DNA of 64,000 nt, taken from the NCBI GenBank assembly GCA_964016885.1, contig OZ024746.1:64108001-64172000 (forward strand), written 5' to 3'. Positions 6,265 to 64,000 of the stretch are shown in pieces. This stretch comes from Eledone cirrhosa. Lineage: Eukaryota. How positions within the stretch are numbered: the stretch's first letter is position 1; the number at the start of each line of letters is the position of its first letter. Below the pieces are notes generated by a model. It was not told the origin of the DNA, ran no database searches, and was given only the letters and a program-made list of their open reading frames with translations. A program made the translations under genes and the position numbers.

Positions 6265-7721
6265 AAGTACCGTGTTCAGAGACACAAAGTACCTTGTCAG
6301 AGACACAAAGTACCTTGTTCAGAGACACAAAGTACCTTGTTCAGAGACACAAAGTATCTTGTCAGAGACACAAAGTACCTTGTTCAGAGACACAAAGTAC
6401 CTTGTCAGAGACACAAAGTACTTTGTTCAGAGACACAAAGTACCTTGTCAGAGACACAAAGTACCTTGTTCAGAGACACAAAGTACCTTGTCAGAGACAC
6501 AAAGTACCTTGTCAGAGACACAAAGTACCTTGTCAGAGACACAAAGTACTTTGTTCAGAGATACAAAGTACCTTGTCAGAGACACAAAGTACTTTGTAAG
6601 AGACACAAAGTACCTTGTTCAGAGACACAAAGTACCTTGTCAGAGACACAAAGTACCTTGTCAGAGACACAAAGTACTTTGTTCAGAGACACAAAGTACC
6701 TTGTCAGAGACACAAAGTACCTTGCCAGAGACACAAAGTACCTTGCCAGAGACACAAAGTACCGTGTTCAGAGACACAAAGTACCGTGTTCAGAGACACA
6801 AAGTACCTTGACATAGACACAAAGTACCTTGTCAGAGACACAAAGTACCTTGTCAGAGACACAAAGTACCTTGTTCAGAGACACAAAGTACCGTGTTCAG
6901 AGACACAAAGTACCTTGACATAGACACAAAGTACCTTGTCAGAGACACAAAGTTCCTTGTTCAGAGACACAAAGTACCTTGTCAGAGACACAAAGTACCT
7001 TGTCAGAGACACAAAGTACCTTGTCAGAGACACAAAGTACCTTGTTCAGAGACACAAAGTACCTTGTCAGAGACACAAAGTACCTTGTCAGAGACACAAA
7101 GTACCTTGTCAGAGACACAAAGTACTTTGTTCAGAGATACAAAGTACCTTGTCAGAGACACAAAGTACTTTGTCAGAGACACAAAGTACCTTGTTCAGAG
7201 ACACAAAGTACCTTGTCAGAGACACAAAGTACCTTGTCAGAGACACAAAGTACCTTGTCAGAGACACAAAGTACTTTGTTCAGAGATACAAAGTACCTTG
7301 TCAGAGACACAAAGTACTTTGTAAGAGACACAAAGTACCTTGTTCAGAGACACAAAGTACCTTGTCAGAGACACAAAGTACCTTGTCAGAGACACAAAGT
7401 ACTTTGTTCAGAGACACAAAGTACCTTGTCAGAGACACAAAGTACCTTGCCAGAGACACAAAGTACCTTGCCAGAGACACAAAGTACCGTGTTCAGAGAC
7501 ACAAAGTACCGTGTTCAGAGACACAAAGTACCTTGACATAGACACAAAGTACCTTGTCAGAGACACAAAGTACCTTGTCAGAGACACAAAGTACCTTGTT
7601 CAGAGACACAAAGTACCGTGTTCAGAGACACAAAGTACCTTGACATAGACACAAAGTACCTTGTCAGAGACACAAAGTACCTTGTTCAGAGACACAAAGT
7701 ACCTTGTCAGAGACACAAAGT
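6265..7721. repeat. 21/22-bp minisatellite (cagagacacaaagtaccttgt[t])n with 725-bp higher-order duplication
   Basis: Visible directly; identical ORF translations offset by 725 bp (6615 vs 7340, 6893 vs 7618). Confidence 0.97.
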
Positions 7722-8555: not shown

Positions 8556-8885
8556 TGTTTAGGCTTATATGTATACCCCTAGAACATCTAGCAGCATTCA
8601 GAGGCTGCCTATTCACACTATAACAATGTTTTTACAGGCAGCCTCTGGGTCAAATTTTCATTTTTCATTTTCCTATTCTCTTTGCGCTATCTTCCATGAT
8701 AAGTTTGGGTTCAAAGTAACCCTTTTATGCAATTCTGTCGAGGTTACCTGATGAGATTGTCCTGTCTTGCATCATAAATAGATGATGGAGCTAGGGCATT
8801 GAAATATGTATAGTGATTTCACAGAATTAAAATTTTAAAGCATATCGTCCAGTCCTGCCTTCTGTTGTCATTTTATATATATATA

Positions 8886-28504: not shown

Positions 28505-30334
28505 CACTGTAAAGTGGTCATGTAGGTGTCACAACAACAAGCACCCAGTCCACACTGTAAAGTGGTCGGGTAGGTGTCACAATAAAAGGCACCCAGTCCA
28601 AATTCTAAAGTGGTCGAGTAGGTGCCACGACAACAAGCTCCGTGTCCACACTGTAAAGTAGTCGGGTAGGTGTCACAACAACAAGCACCCAGTCCACACT
28701 GTAAAGTGGTCGGGTAGATGTCACAATAAAAGGCACCCAGTCCAAATTCTAAAGTGGTCAAGTAGGTGTCACAACAACAAGCTCCATGGCCACACTGTAA
28801 AGTGGCCGGGTAGGTGTCACAACAAAAACTCCCAGTCCACGCTGTAAAGTAGTCATGTAGGTGTCACGACAACAAGCACCCAGTCCACACTGTAAAGTGG
28901 TCGGGTAGGTGTCACGAAAACAAGCACCCAGTCCACATTCTAAAGTGGTTGGGTAGGTGTCACAACAACAAGCTCCATGTCCACACTGTAAAGTGGCCGG
29001 GTAGGTGTCACAACAAAAGCTCCCAGTCCACGCTGTAAAGTAGTCATGTAGGTGTCACGACAACAAGCACCCAGTCCACACTGTAAAGTGGTCGGGTAGG
29101 TGTCACGAAAACAAGCACCCAGTCCACATTCTAAAGTGGTTGGGTAGGTGTCACGACAATAAGCTCGCAGTCCACACTGTAAAGTGGTCGGGTAGGTGTC
29201 ACGACAACAAGCACCCAGTCCACACTGTAAAGTGGTCATGTAGGTGTCATGACAAAATCACCCAGTTCACACTGTAAAGTGGTCGGGTAGGTGCCACGAC
29301 AACAAGTACCCAGCCCACACTGTAAAGTGGTCATGTAGGTGTCATGACAAAAATCACCCAGGACTCACTGTAAAGTGGTCGGGTAGGTGTCACAACAACA
29401 AGCTCCCAGTCAACACTGTAAAGTAGTCATGTAGGTGTCACAACAAAAAGACAAAAAGTACCCAGCCCACACTGTAAAGTGGTCATGTAGGTGTCATGAC
29501 AAAAATCACCCAGGACTCACTGTAAAGTGGTCGGGTAGGTGTCACAACAACAAGCACCCAGTCCACACTGTAAAGTGGTCATGTAGGTGTCATGACAAAA
29601 ATCACCCAGTCCACACTGTAAAGTGGCTGGGTAGGTGTCACAACAACAAGCTCCCAGTCCACACTGTAAAGTGGTTGGGTAGGTGTCATGATAAAAAGCA
29701 CCCAGTCCACATTCTAAAGTGGTCGGTAGGTGTCATGACAACAAGCACCCAGGACTCACTGTAAAGTGGTCGGGTAGGTGTCACAACAACAAGCACCCAG
29801 TCCACACTGTAAAGTGGTCATGTAGGTGTCATGACAAAAATCACCCAGTCCACACTGTAAAGTGGCTGGGTAGGTGTCACAACAACAAGCTCCCAGTCCA
29901 CACTGTAAAGTGGTTGGGTAGGTGTCATGATAAAAAGCACCCAGTCCACATTCTAAAGTGGTCGGTAGGTGTCATGACAACAAGCACCCAGTCCACGCTG
30001 TAAAGTGGTCGGGTAGGTGTCACAACAACAAGCACCCAGTCCACACTGTAAAGTGGTCGGGTAGGTGTCACGACAACAAGCTCCCAGTCCACACTGTAAA
30101 GTGGTCGGGTAGGTGTCATGATAAAAGGCACCCAGTCCACATTCTAAAGTGGTCGGTAGGTGTCATGACAAAAAGCACCCAGTACTTACTGTAAATGAGG
30201 TTAACACTAGGAAGGGCATCCAGCTGTAGAAACCAATCCAAAATCGGTTCTGTATGAGCAAGACATGGTCACCACAAGACAATTCGTCTAACTCATGCTA
30301 GCATGGAAAAATGGACGTTAAACGGTGATGATGA
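28505..30334 (+). repeat. 48-bp minisatellite (~35 units) ending in the RTE/SINE tail module
   Basis: Unit cacactgtaaagtggtcgggtaggtgtcacaacaacaagcacccagtc to ~30190, then ggaagggcatccagctgtagaaac...ggacgttaaacggtgatgatga. Confidence 0.95.
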
Positions 30335-34103: not shown

Positions 34104-34156
<53 letters not shown>

Positions 34157-34272
34157 CAGAAGGAATATTCAATTTGTTGGTAATTCAACAAATATAAATG
34201 TTTATAACTGATTCAGAGCACTCGACAAGTTTTCTGGAGTATAAATGGAAGCTATATTTATAAAACCATATT

Positions 34273-34334
34273 TATTCTATTATATATATTTCAAGGGTAC
34301 CAAAAACTTTGGTACGCTTTCATCAGATAAAATA
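34273..34334 (-). ncRNA. Minimal type I hammerhead ribozyme
   Basis: Minus strand: tattttat CTGATGA aagcgtaccaaa gtt tttggtaccctt GAAA t atat ATA| atagaata; stems I and II pair, palindromic loop III. Confidence 0.72.
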
Positions 34335-34426
34335 CAAAGTGTGTTTTATAAATTTTGACATAGCCAAGGAACATATCTTAACGGTTGAAGTTTTCCTAGG
34401 ATTTTAGTAACATGTTTCAACAATCC

Positions 34427-34481
34427 TTATGCTCCGATGATTCCAGACTTTTCTCTGGAAGAAACAATTGTCAGCAAATAA
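34427..34481 (+). ncRNA. Minimal type I hammerhead ribozyme, CCGATGA core
   Basis: tgct CCGATGA ttccaga cttttc tctggaa GAAAC aatt GTC| agca; 7-bp perfect stem II. Confidence 0.65.
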
Positions 34482-34552
34482 ATGTTCTAAACTAAAATTT
34501 GATCGTTTTAACACTTTGTATATATATATATATATACACACATACACATATT

Positions 34553-34595
<43 letters not shown>

Positions 34596-34598
34596 TTG

Positions 34599-34630
<32 letters not shown>

Positions 34631-34634
34631 TATT

Positions 34635-34693
<59 letters not shown>

Positions 34694-34696
<3 letters not shown>

Positions 34697-35441
34697 TATC
34701 TTTATCCCATTACAGAAACTAATTAGTTGGAGTGAAAATTTTAGTAAGTAAGTTCATTTTTAATTCTTTAAAATTTTCTTATTTTACGTCTTTCATATAA
34801 TTGTTCTGCATCCCCCTGCATAGAACCACCTAGGTACTATGACATAACTTATGTATTTGCTAGCCTCAGTGTACATCTGTACGCATATGTTGGTAAATAT
34901 ACTAATTCTCTATATTTATCTCCAAATTATTTATTTGTTGAGCAAACTTGCCAAATCCACTACTAATTCATTGTAGTGGTAGTAGGCTCTTGTCATAATA
35001 CCATCCCACTCCTACTGACTAGCCTCAGTGTCACGTGATTGATTCTTTAGAATCTGCCACTTGACCAGAGACAGTGAACTTTTTCAGTGCTATGGAATTT
35101 AGTCCCCGCTAGCTGTTCCATCCACCGAATTATTATTTTTATATGAGTCCCTAGTGTCCGCGCATTGCCTGGGGACTTAGCTGAGAATAGACTCCCTGAT
35201 GACGTAATGAATTCTCGATGGTTACATTGCGTAACTATCTTTATCCCATTACAGAAACTAATTAGTTGGAGTGAAAATTTTAGTAAGTTAATTTTTAATT
35301 TTTTTAAAATTTTCTTATTTTACATCTTTCATATAATTGTTCTGCATCCCCCTGCATAGAACCACCTAGGTACTATGACATAACTTATGTATTTGCTAGC
35401 ATTAGTGTACATCTGTACGCATATGTTGGTAAATATACTAA

Positions 35442-35445
<4 letters not shown>
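34694..35445 (+). mobile_element. Non-coding 539-bp unit, ~1.4 tandem copies, flanked by microsatellite (retrozyme-like or non-autonomous PLE)
   Basis: aactatctttatcccattacagaaac...ctaattctct repeats at 34694 and 35233; contains an HHR. Confidence 0.75.
35191..35272 (+). ncRNA. Type I hammerhead ribozyme with extended stem II
   Basis: actcc CTGATGA cgtaatg...gatggttac attgc gtaactatc...cattaca GAAAC taatta GTT| ggagt. Confidence 0.75.
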
Positions 35446-35480
<35 letters not shown>

Positions 35481-35605
35481 CACACATACATATTTGTATA
35501 TATATATATATACACACATATTTGTATATATACATACATATACACACATATTTATATTATATATATATATGTTGGCTTCTTGGTCACATTAATTTCTCTA
35601 TTTTC

Positions 35606-35689
<84 letters not shown>

Positions 35690-35690
35690 T

Positions 35691-35744
<54 letters not shown>

Positions 35745-35825
35745 ACTGGTAAATGAAATAATTATCTTATGTTGTTTATTACATAACTAATATATATATA
35801 TATATATATACAAATATGTGTGTGA

Positions 35826-35865
<40 letters not shown>

Positions 35866-35912
35866 CAGGAAAGAAGGTTTACATGGTTTGCCATACAAAA
35901 AAGTTTTTAATC

Positions 35913-36027
35913 ACATAGCTTACATTTGTTTCACTGAACTGGTATGTCTAGAGATCGCTATCCGCCTAATTTTGCGTCACTCGATTGCCAATACAGAATT
36001 ATAACCAGTCAGATCTTCGGAGCATGC
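35913..36027 (-). ncRNA. Type I hammerhead-like motif (CCGAAGA core) in PLE 3' region
   Basis: Minus strand: gcatgct CCGAAGA t ctgactggt...accagttcag t GAAAC aaat GTA| agctatgt. Confidence 0.55.
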
Positions 36028-36382
36028 GAGAATGAAGAAAATACACAGGCAAGAAAAGAAAAGAAAATATGGAGTAGTTATGGCATTCAATTAGAACAAT
36101 AACAACAACAATTATTACAACAATGCTATCAATAAACTATTTAAGGAGACCCTGACATTACTTAGGTGGGGGGTATATAATGTATCTAATGTTACGGCGT
36201 GAAGACCAGCTGTCATAAGGCAAAAAGTATCGTAGTGTGTATCAATTTTAAATTATAAAGATAAGCTAGTTTTTACAGTCTTTCTCTTCATCTTCAACAG
36301 TATACATGAGTGGGACCACTGTCAAAGCTCAATAGTTGTAGAGTTAATACAGAGGTTAACGAATTAATATACGCATATATCT

Positions 36383-36469
<87 letters not shown>

Positions 36470-36782
36470 AATATATATACACATATATGTGTACATAGAC
36501 ACATACATACACATCAATATACACTCGTACAAAAATATACATACATGCAAAGAGAAAAGCGTGCTAATTGTAATTATGGCAAAAAGAAGGTAAAGTAACA
36601 TTGTAGTAGTGAAATGAGAAAAACTAGGATCTAGGATCAAATGATTGCAGCAGCTGAGAAGGAGTAAGATTGTTGGTAGATGAGGTATTTACAGACAATT
36701 GTGTGGTATAGACTTGTGAAGGAAATAGTATACTTAATGAATATATTTCTGTGAGTAGTAGGTATCCTAATTTAAAGCTATG

Positions 36783-37172
36783 TTATGTTGGTTCGATTCT
36801 CGGAGGTTTGAATCTTATGAATTTAGTGGCTATTCTATGTCTGCAGAAGATAGATCTTTCTAACTTATTATTAAGTAGCCTTTTAACATTTCTAAGGATA
36901 TACAATAGCTCAAGATCACACAGCCCGCAATAGGACATCCCTGTACTATAGGTTTTAGCAGCCGACAACTTCGACCAGTTGATAGTGTAGCTAGCGTTGC
37001 CGTCCTTCAATTCCCATATTTTTCTGGCGAGGGTGGTGGAACCCATAAGTGCTCGGTTTTTCATTGAGTGCCTGTGCACATACCATCTTTTCTTAAAAGA
37101 ACCCGCGGTGGATCCTATGTAATTCCAGGTGGAGTTACCCGAGATGACAGTGCACATGTACACCAGGCTCGA
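36783..37172 (-). pseudogene. GIY-YIG endonuclease C-terminal fragment of a PLE
   Basis: SSLVYMCTV...[21 protein letters not shown]; N-terminus replaced by (TA)n. Confidence 0.85.
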
Positions 37173-37282
37173 AATATATATATATATATATATATACACA
37201 TATTTGTATATATATATATATATATATATATATACTCACACGCATATTTGTATATATATATATATATACTCACACACATATT

Positions 37283-37509: not shown

Positions 37510-38288
37510 ATCATCATTATCATCATCATCATTTAACGTCCATCTTCCACGCTAGCATGGGTTTGGACGGGAGTTTTCCCACTTGAGGCAAGATTGGTTG
37601 TCCTGCTCGTATAGGACTGTCTGGCGGGTTTTCTACGGCTGGGTGCCCTTCCCAACACCAACCACGTTTACAGTGTGGACTGGGAGATTTTTACCGTGTT
37701 ACCTACACGGCCACATCAGAGCGTGGACTGTGTGTTTTTTTGTCGTGATACCTACACGTCTGGCGGGTTTTCTACGGCTGGGTGCCCTTCCCAACACCAA
37801 CCACGTTTACAGTGTGGACTGGGAGGTTTTTACCGTGTTACCTACACGGCCACATTAGAGCGTGGACTGTGTGTTTTTTTGTCGTGATACCTACACGTCT
37901 GGCGGGTTTTCTACGGCTGGGTGCCCTTCCCAACACCAACCACGTTTACAGTGTGGACTGGGAGGTTTTTACCGTGTTACCTACACGGCCACATTAGAGC
38001 GTGGACTGTGTGTTTTTTTGTCGTGATACCTACACGTCTGGCGGGTTTTCTACGGCTGGGTGCCCTTCCCAACACCAACCACGTTTACAGTGTGGACTGG
38101 GAGGTTTTTACCGTGTTACCTACACGGCCACATTACAGCGTGGACTGTGTGTTTTTTTGTCGTGACACCTACACGTGTGGCGGGTTTTCTACGGCTGGGT
38201 GCCCTTCCCAACACCAACCACGTTTACAGCGTGGACTGGGAGGTTTTTACCGTGTTACCTACACGGCCACATTACAGCGTGGACTGTG
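37510..38288 (-). repeat. 139-bp tandem repeat (~4.8 copies) inside an RTE/SINE tail module
   Basis: Matching ORF starts at 37782, 37921 and 38060; monomeric relative at 56040-56298. Confidence 0.93.
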
Positions 38289-38305
38289 AGGTTTATATAT
38301 ATATC

Positions 38306-38905
38306 AGCGCCGCTAAACTGATACGTGCATATATGTATGTGTACCTCTATGCATATGTATGTATATATGTATATATATATATATATGTGCATGCTACTGT
38401 ACGTCTGTATACATATATGTATGTACGTATACATGCATACTTACATTTAAGTAAGTGCCATACTAAGAGTGAGAAATGAAATTTCGTTTTCATTTTGTTT
38501 CAATTTATCGTTTTCGGTATGCCTGACCGATTTTACTCACTCAATATGCAAATTAGGCTGCTCAGCCGTTAATTTTCATAAGGAAAGTATATACTTTCGA
38601 ACGTTCAACTATCTGGCAGATGGGTAAACGGTGCTGATGATAGCTAACAAGCTTGAAACTAGTACATCGTTCCTGTGTCAGTGTTGAACAAAAAGGTGAC
38701 GTGGTTGCCTTAACACCGTATGGCATAAATTCAGGCTGTTCAGTTTGTTTACAAACGAACAAAGCGACGTTAGCGCCGCTAAACTGATACGTGCATATAT
38801 GTATGTGTACCTCTATGCATATGTATGTATATATGTATATATATATATATATGTGCATGCTACTGTACGTCTGTATACATATATGTATGTACGTATACAT
38901 GCATA

Positions 38906-38908
<3 letters not shown>
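38306..38908 (+). mobile_element. Non-coding 466-bp unit, ~1.3 tandem copies, in (TA)n (retrozyme-like or non-autonomous PLE)
   Basis: agcgccgctaaactgatacgtgc...catgcatactta at 38306 and 38772; contains an HHR. Confidence 0.78.
38627..38671 (+). ncRNA. Minimal type I hammerhead ribozyme
   Basis: aacggtg CTGATGA t agct aaca agct t GAAAC ta GTA| catcgtt; canonical core, 7-bp stem I, palindromic ACTAGT stem III. Confidence 0.8.
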
Positions 38909-38946
<38 letters not shown>

Positions 38947-39099
38947 CACATACATATATGTAAAGCGTACATAAATTTATGATGCTGACGGTGATGATGA
39001 TAATGGTACATGCATATTTAATGTAATTATGTGGTTCAGTCTGTTAATTGACACTAATCTGGATAAAACTCATAACTGTCATCATCACTATCAATATTC

Positions 39100-40467: not shown

Positions 40468-42643
40468 TTCTTACGTGACAACTTGCTGCAGGCTACTGAT
40501 GAAACTTGTGGCTGGAGCAGAGCTCCAACCAGACAGAGAGTGATCTGGTGGTGGAACAGCACAGTAGATAAGGCTATTAGAGACAAAAGACTAGCATGGA
40601 AGGCTTGGAAAAAGGGTGGGAGTAGGGAAGAATATACAGCCACTAAGAGAGAAGCTAGACATCAGGTGTACTTAGCACGCAGGGAGGCAGAGAGTAGGAG
40701 GTTTGCCAATGTTCTGCGACGGGAAGATCAGAGGCGTGCGGTGTTCCACATTGTAAGGCAGTGTGTCAATGCAAATCAGGATGTTGTTGGAGATAAATGT
40801 GTCCGGGATGATGCTGGTGTACTAATGATCAAAAAAAGGACGCCTGGAAATGTCATTATGAGAGACTGATGAATGTGGAGAACAAATGGGAGAGAGAGAA
40901 ATTACCCTTGGTAGATCCGACAGAGGGACCAGCTATTGAGATTGACGAATATAGGGTCCAAGAGGCGATTAGGGAAATGAAAAATGGTAAGGCTGCCGGA
41001 CCATCGGGAATAATTGCTGAGATGCTGAAGCCATCAGGGCACGTAGGCACTAAACTGGTTGCACGCATCATCAATCAGGCTATATTTGGTGGTCATACCC
41101 AAAGACTGGTGCAGCAGTATTCTCATAAATTGCTACAAAGGTAAAGGGGATGCTTTGGAGAGGAGCAATTATAGGGGTATAAAACTGATAGATCAGGTTA
41201 CGAAAGTGGCAGAAAGGATTTTAGCACAACTAATTAGAGAAAGGGTCAAACTAGATGAGATGCAGTTTGTTTTGTGCCTGGGAAGAGTACAACAGATGCC
41301 CTCTTCTTGGTGAGACAATTGCAAGAGAGGTTCTTAGAGAAGAATAAGCCACTATACTTAGCCTTTGTTGACCTAGAGAAGGCCTTTGATAGGGTACCCT
41401 GATCTGTCATCTGGTGGTCCCTAAGGAAGCTGGGTGTTGAGTAATGGCTTGTGAGGACAGTACAAACTTTGTACAGAGGTACTCTCAGTAAAGTCAGGGT
41501 AGGAGTGGAGTTTAGTGAGGAATTCCAGATACAAGTAGGAGTACATCAGGGTTCGGTCCTCAGCCCGTTCTTGTTCATTATAGTCCTCCAAGCCATAACA
41601 GAGGAGTTTAAGACTGGCTGTCCATGGGAACTTCTTTATGCTGACGATCTGGTTCTTATAGCAGAATCAGTAGAGGAGCTAGAGAATAAATTCTGGCTAT
41701 GGAAACAGCAGTTGGAAGCAAGAGGACTGAGAGTGAATCTAGCTAAGACAAAAGTGTTGATGAGTAGAAAAGAGGACAAAACCCTGATTCCGTCAGGGAA
41801 ATGGCCATGTTCGATATGCAGAAAAGGAACTGGCATAAATTCTATAAAATGCACACAATGCAGATCTTGGGTACACACGAGATGTAGCGGGATAGCAGGC
41901 AAACTAACAGGTAGGGAGAAATATGTATGCAGTAGATGTACAGGGAAATTAGACAGTAGAAGTCGCATTGATAGACACATTTTTCAAATTCAGGAGGGCG
42001 TTATAGAAGTGGTGGATAGCTTCCGGTACCTAGGAGATCAGATTAGCATGGGAGGAGGGTGTTCCGAGGCCATAGTATCTAGAATAAGGACGGGTTGGAA
42101 GAAGTTTAGGGAGCTGCTTCCTCCGTTGACAAAGAAGGGTTTCTCCCTGCGTACGAAAGGCCGGTTGTATGATGCCTGTGTGAGGAGCGCGATGCTGCAT
42201 GGTAGTGAGACATGGGCAGCAACTGCAGAGGATATGCGACGGCTGGAGAGAAATGAGGCAAGCATGCTCCGTTGGATGTGCAGTGTAAATGTGCATGAAC
42301 GACCCAGCATAAATGCGTTGAGAGAGAAACTGTGTCTGAGAGGGATAGAATGTAGTGTACGGGAGAGGAGACTGAGGTGGTATGGACATGTGATGTGTAT
42401 GGAGGATGACCGATGGGTGAAGAAGTGCCAGGAATTGCCAGTTGAAGGAAGACGTGGTAGAGGTAGACCACGAAAAACATGGGCGGAGGTGGTAAGAACA
42501 GACCTCAGATCATTGAAGCTCACGGTGGAGATGACGAGGGACCGTGACGAGTGGAGAGATGCTGTGCTAAATAAGACCCATCCCACCCTTGCAAGCAGGG
42601 AAAAGCGGACGTAAAATGATGATGATGATGATGATGATGATGA
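40468..42643 (+). mobile_element. 5'-truncated RTE-clade LINE, disrupted
   Basis: MKNGKAAGPSG, KGKGD...NYRGIKL, QGSVLSPFLF, LYADD, LRWYGHV; frameshifts and in-frame stops at ~41400 and ~41442; (ATG)n tail; no endonuclease domain present. Confidence 0.95.
41451..42614 (+). pseudogene. Reverse transcriptase C-terminal half of RTE ORF with embedded PHD-type finger
   Basis: 387-aa open segment with YADD motif and C4HC3 motif at 41808-41939. Confidence 0.92.
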
Positions 42644-46220: not shown

Positions 46221-47585
46221 CTCTATATTACTCTCCATAATATTAGACTCTATATTATACTCTCCCTAATATTAGACTCTATATTATACTCTCCATAATA
46301 TTACACTTTATATTATACTCTCCATAATATTACACTTTATATTATACTCTCCATAATATTACACTTTATATTATACTCTCCATAATATTACACTTTATAA
46401 TATACTCTCCATAATATTACACTTTATATTATACTCTCCATAATATTAGACTCTATATTATACTCTCCATAATATTACACTTTATATTATACTCTCCCTA
46501 ATATTACACTTTATATTATACTCTCCCTAATATTACACTTTATATTATACTCTCCCTAATATTACACTTTATATTATACTCTCCATAATATTACACTTTA
46601 TATTATACTCTCCATAATATTACACTTTATATTATACTCTCCATAATATTACACTTTATATTATACTCTCCATAATATTAGACTCTATATTATACTCTCC
46701 CTAATATTACACTTTATAATATACTCTCTTTAATATTTCACTGTATATTATATTATACTCTCTATAATATTACACTTTATATTATACTCTCCATAATATT
46801 ACACTTTATATTATACTCTCCATAATATTACACTTTATAATATACTCTCCATAATATTAGACTCTATATTATACTCTCTTTAATATTTCACTGTATATTA
46901 TATTATACTCTCTATAATATTACACTTTATATTATACTCTCTATAATATTACACTTTATATTATAGCATACTCTCTATAATATTACATTCTACGTTATAT
47001 TATACTCTCTATAATATTATACATTATACTCTCCATAATATTACACTCTATATTATATTATACTCTCTATAATATTACATTCTACATTATATTATACTCT
47101 CTACAATATTACACTATTACATTATACTCTCCATAATATTACACTCTATATTACATTATACTCTCCGTAATATTACACTCTATATTATACTCTCCATAAT
47201 ATTACACTCTATATTACATTATACTTTCCATAATATTACACTCTATATTATACTCTCCATAATAATTACACTCTATATTACATTATACTCTCCATAATAT
47301 TACACTCTATATTACATTATACTCTCCATAATAATTACACTCTATATTATACTCCCCATAATATTACACTCTATATTACATTATACTCTCCGTAATATTT
47401 CACTCTATATTATACTCTCTGTATTATTTCACTCTATATTATATTATACTCTTCATAATATTTCCCTCTGAAATATACTCTTCATAATATTACACTCTAT
47501 ATTATACTCTTCCTAATATTATTACACTCTATATTATATTATACTCTCCATAATATTTCACTCTATATTATATTATACTCTTCTA
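46221..47585. repeat. 29-bp (variant 34-bp) AT-rich minisatellite
   Basis: Unit ctttatattatactctccataatattaca; strong strand asymmetry, very few G on + strand. Confidence 0.95.
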
Positions 47586-61273: not shown

Positions 61274-61672
61274 TTAGGGAGAAGTGTTTAGACGGGGTCC
61301 GTATTTGTTAATAAAGTGAGATTCCTTGCTGATGCGCTGTGTGTGGGTGGCATTATCTTTAAATTTGTAGAGGGGAAAGATTCTAAAGTTGGGATGATTT
61401 TGGGCGGCACAGGTATCTATGTGTTCACTCAGTGGTATTTTTCTGTATTCCCATATTTTAATTTGGGATCTATGGACAGTCATGCGTTGGCGGAGGCTGT
61501 TTTTAGTCTGGCCTATGTATTGTTCTCGACAACCTGAGCAAGTTAATACATATATTAGATTTTCTGATGCGCATGTGAAATTGTGTTTTACTATAAAACG
61601 TTGACCTTCTTTGAAATAGAATTCCGAACCCTCTATTAGGTTGATGCATATGCCACAGTTGGGTCTATCGCA
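61274..61672 (-). pseudogene. PLE Cys-rich linker plus GIY-YIG endonuclease
   Basis: My translation: CDRPNCGIC...TCASENLIYVLTCSGCREQYIGQTKNSLRQRMTVHRSQI...RISKESHFINKYGPRLN. Confidence 0.9.
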
Positions 61673-62007
61673 TTTTTTTTTTTACTGTGGGTTTCGTTGT
61701 TGTGGTTGGCAGCACTTTGGCATGTGTTAGGATGTTTTTCATTGACTTAGATTGTCTTTTGCTCTTTATGATATCGTGTGTTCGAAGGATTTGGTTCATT
61801 CTATGGTCCTTTTTTAACACAGGGATGTTCTGGAGGATGGTGTCAAAGGCCTCATTGTTGAGTGGGTTGTGTGTATGTATGGAAGAGCTTTTAGTTTCGG
61901 TTGATTTACTTTAGGGTGTCCGTTTTAGTGTGTGTGTGTGGGGGGGGGGGCAATTCATTGATCTTCTTTAAGCGTATGAGACTGTTGTTGTCTCAGGTTA
62001 TTGTCAT

Positions 62008-62996
62008 TTATCTGGTCGAGATCAGAGATGAGAGAGCAGTGAGGTCCTGGGTACTGAGTTTTAGGGCACGTTGGATTCCATTGTCAATTAGTGATGCAGG
62101 GTAGTCCCTGTCTATGAGTGTGTCCTTTAGTTCTTGTAGCCGTAAGTAACAGGTGTTTTTATTGGAGACTATAGTACAGATTCTCTTGGCTAAGTTGTAG
62201 GGAATATTAATTTTAACGTGTCTAGGGTGGCAAGAGTTGAAAGGAAGATATTGCTTGGAGTCTGTGGGCTTGTAGTATATGTCTGTTTCTATTTTTTTGT
62301 TATGAATCTTAATGAGGATGTCGAGGAAGGGAAGTTGTTGATGGCTGTATTCCACCGTAAAGTTAATATTCGTGTTGAGCCCATTTATAAGGGTGTGAAA
62401 TTCTTTAAGTTTCTCGATGTTTTCGTGCCAAAGGATGAAGCAGTCATCTAGATATCGCTTCCAGTTCTTTTCTATGTGTAAGTGGGGAGTGTTTCCAAAT
62501 TTGTTTAGTACTTTAGTGTAGAGGGTGATTTCCAGGTATCCCATGACTAGGTTGGCATAAGTGGGGACTGTTTTCGTTCCCATAGCGGTCCCAGATTTCT
62601 GCCTGTAGGGTTTGTTATTGAAAACGAAGTAATTGTTCTTCAAGATAAATTTGAGTCCTTCTATCACGAATTCTTTTTTGATGCGTTGTGGGAGTTCATT
62701 GTGGTAATTATCCAGCCAGAATTGGATAGCTTCTGTCGATAGGTTCTGTCGGTTTTTAATCTATTTAATTCTTCCCATTCTTTCTTGTTGAGGTTTGGCT
62801 TGTGTTTTTGTCTGTGCAAGTGTTGGTAAGGAAAGTTTGTGATGTGTTCACAGAATTCGTCCAGGATTTTATTTCTACCTTTTGATGGGGTGTAGTTGCT
62901 TCTATTTCTGGCTAATGATTCATCCTCATTGTACTGGTCGAATAGTTCTTCACTGAGTCGTAACTTTCTACAGAAGTCTGTGATGTATTCCTTCAT
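62008..62996 (-). pseudogene. PLE reverse transcriptase with internal deletion at ~62745
   Basis: NNYFVFN...YRQKSGTAMGT...YANLVMG, WKRYLDD, LPFLD, YYKPTD, SCHP motifs; RT N-terminal motifs missing at the junction. Confidence 0.93.
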
Positions 62997-64000
62997 TTCA
63001 TAGTAGTTAGGGGGGGGGGGGGGGGTCGGTGTGAATTTAAGACCTTTGGAGAGTAAGTTGATAAGGTTGGGAGTTGGTTCTGCACTAGTTAGATTGATAA
63101 TTTTTATTACTCTCGGTTTCTCCTCCCTGTCTTGTGTTATTTTGTTTGCCTGTATCTGAGTGCTGTCTCTAAAAAATGGTTGGGGTAGAGGGGTTGTCTG
63201 CTGATGTTAAGTGGTCTCCTGTGTTTGTTATATTCCTTGTTGTTGTAAAATGTGGTTCAGGTTCGGGTTTATGGATTGAATGGGGTATTTCTGTATTGCG
63301 AGTATGGATGTGTGTTTCTATGTGCTATGTTGGATTGTGGTGTTATAGGTGGCCTATGTTGTTGGTTGTATCGTGTGGTGTGGGTTTGTTGTGTATTGTG
63401 GAAGCGAGAGTTGAGAAAATGGAAATTACCTTGCTGTCCCCTTGTAGCGGGGAAGTTGTTACATCTATCATGGTGGTGATATCTTTTCCCTATGTTTGAC
63501 GATGAGGCATCCGCATAGTAGTTGAGTGATTTGGTATGGTGTCTCCTTGAAGAGGGAAAATTGTAAATGTCATTCTGGGGGTGATGATTTCTAGGGTTTT
63601 TGTTAATTCTTATGGAAGCGAGGTTGGGAAGTTCATCTTCGGTGTGGTGCTTCCTTCTTCTTTTGTTAGTAGCTGGGGGGTTTGCGAAGTTGTTGTGCGG
63701 TTCGGTTATGGGTTTTCCTATTTTTATGAACAGGTTATTGGAGGTGTAATCCGTTTGAAAAATCGATTCATAATTTAGGAACCAAGCGGCACTTTTTTCT
63801 CAGCGTTGAAGGGATTTCAGTTCTTCTCTGTTGCAGTCCCCTTTCCATAATTTAGAGATCTTCTCTACCTTGGGGCCTTCAGTCTTATTGTTGATTTCCA
63901 GGAGGATCTCTTCATCGATGGTTTTGAATTTATATATATCTAGGGTAGGTAACATTCCCAAGATCCATGGATGAGTTCTCTTCACCGGTCTCTGTCCTTC

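Follow-up and report, generated by a model that had tools for sequence, protein, structure and literature searches.

The stretch of Eledone cirrhosa DNA analysed here (64,000 nucleotides of contig OZ024746.1, assembly GCA_964016885.1; hereafter the window) contains a partly repeated 539-bp unit that carries a hammerhead motif and lies between TA-rich microsatellites (see the table). This arrangement raises the question of whether the unit belongs to a dispersed non-coding family of the retrozyme kind, as the earlier note had proposed, or whether it is either the pseudo-LTR (pLTR) of an autonomous PLE or a duplication unique to this locus. If it is a dispersed family, the further question arises as to which enzyme moves it and in what form its RNA is copied.

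Alignment of the two repeats (34694-34909 against 35233-35445, 95% identical and with starts 539 apart) bears out the partly tandem unit that had been read from the letters alone, with GUU triplets ending at 34728 and 35267. CUGAUGA is absent upstream of the first triplet, so that the locus comprises one and a half hammerheads. At the S site listed in the table there is a short ATA match to the TA target, and a sequence-run match to the window has a loose end carrying TA at 34799.

Table. Features of the 539-bp family copy and of related elements in the window
Feature	Position	Strand	Remarks
5'-truncated single-armed copy of the 539-bp family, ~1.4 units, ending at L	34694..35447	+	from alignment of repeats and family end sites
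First unit (539 bp, counted from the truncation point), without ORF	34694..35232	+	
Hammerhead 3' half (stem II 3' strand, GAAA, palindromic loop III, GUU, stem I 3' strand)	34694..34733	+	
Short (S) end site	34796..34799	+	~68 nt past cut; second copy 35332-35335
Bulged hairpin 6 nt past S (4 bp, 2-nt 3' bulge, 4 bp)	34803..34826	+	second copy 35339-35362
Long hairpin between S and L	34850..34901	+	within the ~115-nt one-sided tail
Long (L) end site	34908..34912	+	~180 nt past cut; the 34694-35447 copy uses L at 35447
Bulged hairpin ~10 nt past L (CUC, 4-5 bp, UU bulge, GAG)	34920..34942	+	
Type I hammerhead motif, complete; stem II of 51 nt in two parts	35191..35272	+	predicted cut after 35267
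Terminal partial repeat (215 bp)	35233..35447	+	95% identical to start of first unit
Eight extra CT units beyond the element's own two	35448..35463	+	such extras at terminal L ends only
TA-rich microsatellite, 5' flank	34519..34693	.	
TA-rich microsatellite, 3' flank	35464..35862	.	common to the adjoining Hydra-type fragment
End fragment of another family, with type I hammerhead (27-nt stem II) at ~34273-34334	34155-34518	-	
5'-truncated copy of a young Hydra-type family	35865-37174	-	808-aa frames elsewhere; 56,181 first-look candidates
Type I hammerhead, 46-nt stem II	8740-8880	+	end 61 nt past cut, in TA
Broken copy of a young Neptune-type family	61274-63800	-	GIY-YIG match; long CA-rich 3' region

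The complete hammerhead has the anatomy that the earlier note had described. Its open-ended stem I pairs ACUCC (35191-35195) with GGAGU (35268-35272), and the core consists of CUGAUGA (35196-35202) and C35203 on one side and A35253 and GAAA (35254-35257) on the other. Stem II contains a 7x7 internal loop and comprises an outer helix of 6 bp (GUAAUG 35204-35209/CAUUAC 35247-35252) and an inner hairpin of 9 bp (35217-35225/35231-35239), while stem III amounts to 3 bp with an AAUU loop, lying in a palindrome. A strict search for this motif returned one match in the real window as against none in 100 doublet-shuffled windows. An Rfam search of the window gave no hammerhead either at the gathering score or at E<=5, its matches being microsatellite artefacts, and the miss is probably due to the long stem II.

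A survey of 169 two-half motifs from 88 loci, chosen in part by the 3' core, found the core intact in 146, the palindromic loop region invariant in 147 and G-C next to the stem II base in 164. The C35203·A35253 mismatch at that base, which had been suspected of being a copy-specific mutation, recurs in 162 of these motifs and is a family trait; an unpaired A likewise stands before GAAA. An unpaired base in this position is typical of Penelope hammerheads according to the accessible passages of PMC4209133, and the family has all the marks given there for the type, namely the extra nucleotide after A9, G10.1-C11.1 and the palindromic loop III. Nor is the long stem II peculiar to the 539-bp family, since an autonomous Hydra-type family has one of 81 nt, and long stems are common at Hydra-type ends in the genome, with lengths of 27, 31, 36, 81 and 88 nt. 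When a single motif was taken from each locus, giving 67 distinct ones, 96% of the cells were paired and two-sided changes occurred at six pairs, every one of them in stem II; counts of such changes are inflated by relatedness among the motifs. The fold is under selection, so that cleavage likely matters at some step. The RNA of the cut-to-cut monomer is strongly structured relative to shuffles (z = -6.3); as a circle it is predicted to fold at -137.8 kcal/mol, with the active fold a mere 2.9 kcal/mol above the minimum and a stem II probability of about 0.98.

The unit is far from confined to this locus. Exact ribozyme-core matches in the 3.0-Gb genome number 4,956 (2,433 + 2,523 for two non-overlapping patterns; controls 0), the family 24-mer accounting for the 2,433 occurrences with none for its reversed control, and a first look with the whole unit gave 3,417 candidates, of which the 40 that were scored are 93-98% identical and spread over many contigs. 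With some 68 loci for every 100 matches, the exact matches would correspond to roughly 3,000 insertions. Cut-to-cut units, 95 in all (70 + 25), measure 487-623 bp, lack an ORF and stand head to tail in runs of up to 6.4 units; the first 70 (511-554 bp) fall into seven groups, the four larger of which are 81-92% alike. The longest array seen, at C1:94666565-94672322, has at least 10 matches to a sister subfamily at a spacing of 521-522 bp. In sequence runs from elsewhere, made up of DNA reads or of contigs whose kind is not stated, relatives of the family occur on at least 50 contigs in the sequence run of one other organism and on 1-9 contigs in four further runs, and one low-depth contig of 160 nt from another organism is exact over 88 nt to 35191-35278, with unrelated sequence before it.

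None of this material points to a coding parent. The longest ATG frames in seven subfamily references run to 33-66 aa; tblastn of 75 PLE proteins against these references at E 0.1 gave no match; and coding sequence is joined to the family copies at none of 158 distinct loci (96 + 46 + 16, the set of 46 being what was left after removal of nine overlapping loci). In particular, no copy at these loci is linked to an ORF combining a reverse transcriptase with a C-terminal GIY-YIG domain, the trait of autonomous Hydra-clade elements. PLE fragments near the copies either have a TA or CT tract in between or are neighbours that are themselves truncated. As the pattern-picked loci all lie in the initial 99 Mb of contig 1, a rare parent element could be missed by this sample. 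The retrozyme-like reading of the earlier note is upheld on both of the points that could have undone it, the copies being dispersed in their thousands and the unit being joined to no PLE frame at the 158 loci. By the sequence-level definition, the 539-bp family belongs with the animal non-LTR retrozymes, as a family new among them.

The ends of the copies help to glean how they were inserted. Their 5' ends are variable, and their 3' ends are fixed at one of two sites, S (about cut+68) or L (about cut+180). TA or CT follows 153 of 176 arm 3' ends (104/122 and 49/54); TA is also found at 21 of 34 unpaired 5' ends, and part of it could arise during insertion. Any target-site duplication would be masked by the TA tracts. 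Many insertions are inverted, with two arms joined head to head (48 such pairs in 68 pattern-picked loci) and with 5' ends scattered over the unit. Out of 114 inverted insertions, 90 could be classified, 23 others having one arm that ends elsewhere and one lying at a locus edge; 88 of the 90 combine one S with one L end, two are L+L and none is S+S, a departure from independent choice with p 1e-14 in the first 53 pairs. The same 88 pairs possess a one-sided tail of about 115 nt. Opposite arms of one insertion differ by 2.0% and have 64 of 254 rare variants in common (33 loci), as against 4.0% and 312 of 32,742 for arms of separate insertions; judged by these variants, both arms of an insertion derive from one donor. 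Twin priming in the manner of L1, in which the 5' end of one arm would fall at the start of the other, was considered and rejected, since there is wide overlap between the arms and no relation between their 5' ends (6 of 52 within 15 nt where three are expected). The S+L footprint, which the earlier note had missed, corresponds to the tail at a single end that Craig et al. (see below) describe for Penelope elements, its length being about 115 nt in this family.

Both end sites are marked by RNA structure. A bulged helix (3-4 bp, a 2-nt 3' bulge and 4-5 bp) lies 6-10 nt past both S and L in all six subfamily references compared, against a background for the motif of 18 in 306 offsets. Across 48 copies both hairpins have 98% of cells paired, with two-sided changes confined to the S hairpin, which is a GUUC/GAAC variant of the CUC/GAG form; the L hairpin, which shows no two-sided change, has a low pairing probability (0.2) in the circle fold. 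The bulged hairpin is also present past S in both Hydra-linked families, i.e., the 808-aa family and the 34155-34518 family. A strict motif search past L in these two families found no hairpin there; these L sites fit the motif only loosely, with just one or two upper pairs to be made out by eye.

The L site has a further property. In subfamilies A, C and E, the RNA of which reads CUCU at L, (CT)>=3 is carried by 45 of 58 terminal L ends (range 3-42 units); in subfamilies B and D, which lack CUCU at L, it is carried by 0 of 21, and internal copies of the L site exceed two CT units in 0 of 84 cases. This suggests that the extra (CT)n is the product of reiterative copying at initiation, with later DNA slippage beside TA as a possible alternative. 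At the other end of the arms, 5' ends accumulate in the 36 nt past the cut site in pattern-picked loci (14/43 versus 38/615; p 9e-7), none falling at 0-4 nt past the cut; in best-hit loci, which were selected for length, the enrichment is absent (3/48, p 0.19). The pile-up would reflect templates that had been cleaved and then trimmed, or else a stall of copying at the ribozyme fold.

The same insertion pattern recurs in families that are close neighbours or analogues of the 539-bp family. The 808-aa family, represented in the window by the fragment at 35865-37174, is autonomous and has the Hydra motifs RWK, DKT and CxxC-E-N-CxH. Its hammerhead (35918-36026) has an 81-nt stem II with U·U at the stem base, and a CCGAAGA core (U4C) is found in 44 of 47 motifs. 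Its ends lie at cut+58 and cut+229 with TA flanks, and 23 of 24 inverted pairs in 26 loci, two of which are single-armed, are S+L. At locus L133 the end of the 34155-34518 family leads, uninterrupted by TA, into an ORF of Hydra type at 187 nt past the cut. Around the 34155-34518 fragment itself, a stretch of 3 kb contains three TA-targeted inserts. A non-coding tandem family of 483 bp (contig C3 near 173.2 Mb; L227:166-1371), very young at 97-99% identity and with 1,854 candidates, has a CUGACGA hammerhead in which stem II measures 53 nt. Its copies end at cut+80 or cut+188, it shares the GUUC/GAAC hairpin with the 539-bp family, and all 15 inverted pairs among 24 loci are S+L. The hammerhead family at 8740-8880 is older (4,080 first-look candidates at 81-91%). 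At 38300-38950 (+) there is a short-stem type I hammerhead with a palindromic loop at 38634, in a repeat that begins again after about 470 nt and which is possibly the other retrozyme-like family of the earlier note. At 41445-42614 (+) there is a fragment of a LINE-type reverse transcriptase into which a PHD-finger match is inserted, and tandem arrays lie at 6265-7721 (21 bp), 28505-30195 (48), 37619-38288 (139) and 46221-47572 (29).

From the observed copy structure, fixed ends, pairing rule, covariation and lack of an ORF, we infer that the 539-bp retrozyme is spread by the reverse transcriptase-endonuclease of a Hydra-clade PLE, a reading that we hold to be probable and that extends to the enzyme, its dimeric state, the priming, the slippage and the ribozyme cleavage. 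A tandem transcript would be bound at its two bulged hairpins, about 115 nt apart, by the Hydra enzyme, probably as a dimer, which would cut a (TA)n tract. Each of the resulting DNA ends would be primed at its own site on the same RNA, one at S (cut+68) and the other at L (cut+180), by a few nucleotides of TA pairing, and stutter at L on the UCUC template would add the (CT)n. Both cDNAs would then proceed upstream through at least one ribozyme, often stopping 5-33 nt short of the next cut site, and would be joined head to head, or else one arm would be lost, as may have happened at 34694-35447. Long arrays were likely enlarged afterwards at the DNA level. With regard to the template, we lean slightly towards a partly cleaved linear multimer over a monomer circle.

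Under this scheme, copying begins short of the L hairpin, and the terminal repeat therefore lacks it. Since the only complete pair of hairpins at 34694-35447 sits in the first repeat, this copy could as a linear donor yield stubs only, and it is probably a dead end, unless a palindromic double-hammerhead mode cuts at 34728. Two consecutive complete ribozymes, by which Li et al. (see below) recognise 'active' loci, are lacking here and present at other loci of the family.

The footprint by itself names the Hydra clade as the likely partner, the Hydra families compared being those in 315 loci, with divergent ones sampled through flanks. A Hydra pLTR homologous to the unit was not found, the post-cut regions of two Hydra families scoring like shuffles, and a profile of the unit run over the 315 loci found only the 483-bp non-coding family. 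The unit is not common to either Penelope family of the window. A partner search by short-stem pattern gave deletion variants and the sister subfamily, without an ORF, and 15 S-site loci without a listed ribozyme match are all family copies, none of them ORF-linked.

Other explanations of the family may be weighed against this. Were the unit the pseudo-LTR of an unseen autonomous element, its copies would be truncated ends, comparable in kind to the truncated Hydra ends at 34155-34518 and 35865-37174, and only part of the family has been inspected. However, ORF-less units that measure 487-623 bp from cut to cut follow one another head to tail in arrays of up to 6.4 units, and no locus of the 158 reaches coding sequence, the 15 chosen for an S site without a listed ribozyme match included, which makes this account highly improbable. 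A minisatellite spread by DNA-level recombination, its ribozyme decayed, would fit the signs of DNA-level duplication in long arrays; the dispersal over many contigs, the fixed 3' and variable 5' ends, the inversions, the TA flanks and the covarying RNA structure all speak against it, and the polar end pattern largely refutes it, leaving it with next to no probability. A non-autonomous element moved by another TA-favouring Penelope clade, be it Neptune or the Naiad remnants, is a somewhat more serious alternative, albeit a decidedly unlikely one. The genome has abundant copies of a young Neptune-type family in which 784-aa frames are intact, Neptune fragments lie close to some copies of the 539-bp family, and no Hydra pLTR matches the unit in sequence. 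Against this, the Neptune flanks from 30 loci are unlike the unit save for one nested family copy and one 18-nt match, and the end spacing, long stem II and hairpin motif match those of Hydra families. A motif scan beside four full frames of the Neptune-type family found no hammerhead.

The classical retrozyme cycle, as set out in the accessible passages of Cervera and de la Pena (2020, PMC7229834), would run as follows: the ribozyme would free 539-nt monomers, these would be ligated to circles, and each tandem insertion would be a rolling-circle cDNA of one circle. Several observations agree with it, including the intact core in 146 of 169 motifs, the covariation of stem II across subfamilies that are about 80% identical, the routine passage of copies across cut sites (74 crossings of a second or later site), the predicted stability of the circle with its active fold close to the minimum, and the greater closeness of repeats within an insertion to one another than to other loci. 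Further, since every generation costs a linear donor one unit, something must restore the length, and circles may do so. However, the arrays do not look like plain copies of one monomer circle, the intermediate that the earlier note had in mind, when their variants are followed from repeat to repeat. Among 14 multi-repeat loci, the terminal repeat lacks variants common to the inner repeats in L169, L015, L171, L172 and L185, and L169 and L170 alternate with a period of two; the terminal repeat of L216 and L184 carries the inner-repeat variants, consistent with the initially identical repeats expected from a monomer circle. Also against the monomer circle are the stopping of copying near cut sites and a weak indication from exclusive variants, 7 of 9 of which are in register between arms where about 45% is expected. 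The variant patterns mean that linear multimers, dimer circles or later duplication at the DNA level are needed for the long arrays. The classical cycle is accordingly unlikely in our estimation, albeit less so than the alternatives above. A bolder statement, which we put forward only tentatively, is that rolling-circle copying plays no part in animal retrozymes of this type. They would instead be mimics of a twin-hairpin signal, by which a Hydra-clade dimer would prime both DNA ends at two fixed sites on one linear, partly self-cleaved RNA, with telomerase-like stutter at the start.

The retrozyme class as such is already known, and neither the 539-bp size nor the C·A mismatch is remarkable. 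The earlier note had taken the unit to be larger than known animal retrozymes; it does exceed the 170-400 nt given for monomers of animal non-LTR retrozymes by Cervera and de la Pena but falls inside the 51-972 bp reported by Li, Clavereau and Pollet (bioRxiv 10.64898/2026.07.22.740005), most of whose families have few repeats. As far as the accessible passages of PMC7229834 go, the 539-bp family resembles the retrozymes described there in its non-coding tandem repeats with one type I hammerhead per unit, its weak palindromic stem III and its co-occurrence with PLEs, and the axolotl HHR_Amex2 has a mismatch at the stem II base as well. It differs in its monomer of 510-555 bp with a 51-nt two-part stem II, and in its copies of mostly one or two units, often inverted, placed in (TA)n and having two fixed ends, a feature that those passages do not describe. 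Further, its circles and cleavage are putative. According to the available text of Li et al., retrozymes and PLEs co-occur in vertebrates and have homology in the pLTR, from which dependence on PLEs was proposed, and eight of nine dimers showed no cleavage in vitro. The published link thus consists of co-occurrence and homology, with the mechanism left open in the passages available from both papers. For the 539-bp family, in contrast, no homologous pLTR was found and it is the insertion footprint that points to the partner clade. In the openly accessible literature covered, we found no report of cephalopod retrozymes, of the S+L rule, or of hairpins or (CT)n for retrozymes.

The Hydra-clade EN+ PLEs of Craig et al. 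(2021, PMC8557442), such as Hydra-1_Obim, resemble the family, again within the accessible passages: they lie in (TA)n targets, are truncated at the 5' end, form partial tandems with an inverted 5' copy, carry a tail on one end only and have a canonical hammerhead. Unlike them, the 539-bp family has no ORF, its tail is about 115 nt rather than 30-40 nt, and its stem II is far longer than the 7 bp with an 8-nt loop of Hydra-1_Obim. Craig et al. list the tandem and inverted structures and the microsatellite bias as unexplained. In the Poseidon element PAc of Anolis (Frangieh et al. 2024, PMC11167929), two internal start sites set the tail and a dimer is predicted, a likeness in that two start sites define a one-sided tail. 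As reported in the available part of that work, uncleaved RNA can act as template, both strands are cut and extended, and the same starts are used in vitro on both strands, without target homology or strand preference. Insertions of the 539-bp family, by comparison, use one of each site, TA microhomology and (CT)n additions, and the behaviour of the Poseidon element weighs in this respect against the priming proposed above.

The chief value of the finding lies in the fact that the copies of this family record their own insertion. Given a TA target and a non-coding RNA of 250 nt on which both start sites are mapped and two hairpins lie, the questions of insertion could be tested with a single Hydra protein, and the (CT)n additions hint at telomerase-like reiteration. 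The reverse transcriptase of PLEs is the sister group of that of telomerase. If the linear, twin-hairpin reading is true, the 539-bp family would constitute a minimal substrate provided by nature, one that would account for the one-sided tail of Penelope elements and identify what drives the retrozyme.
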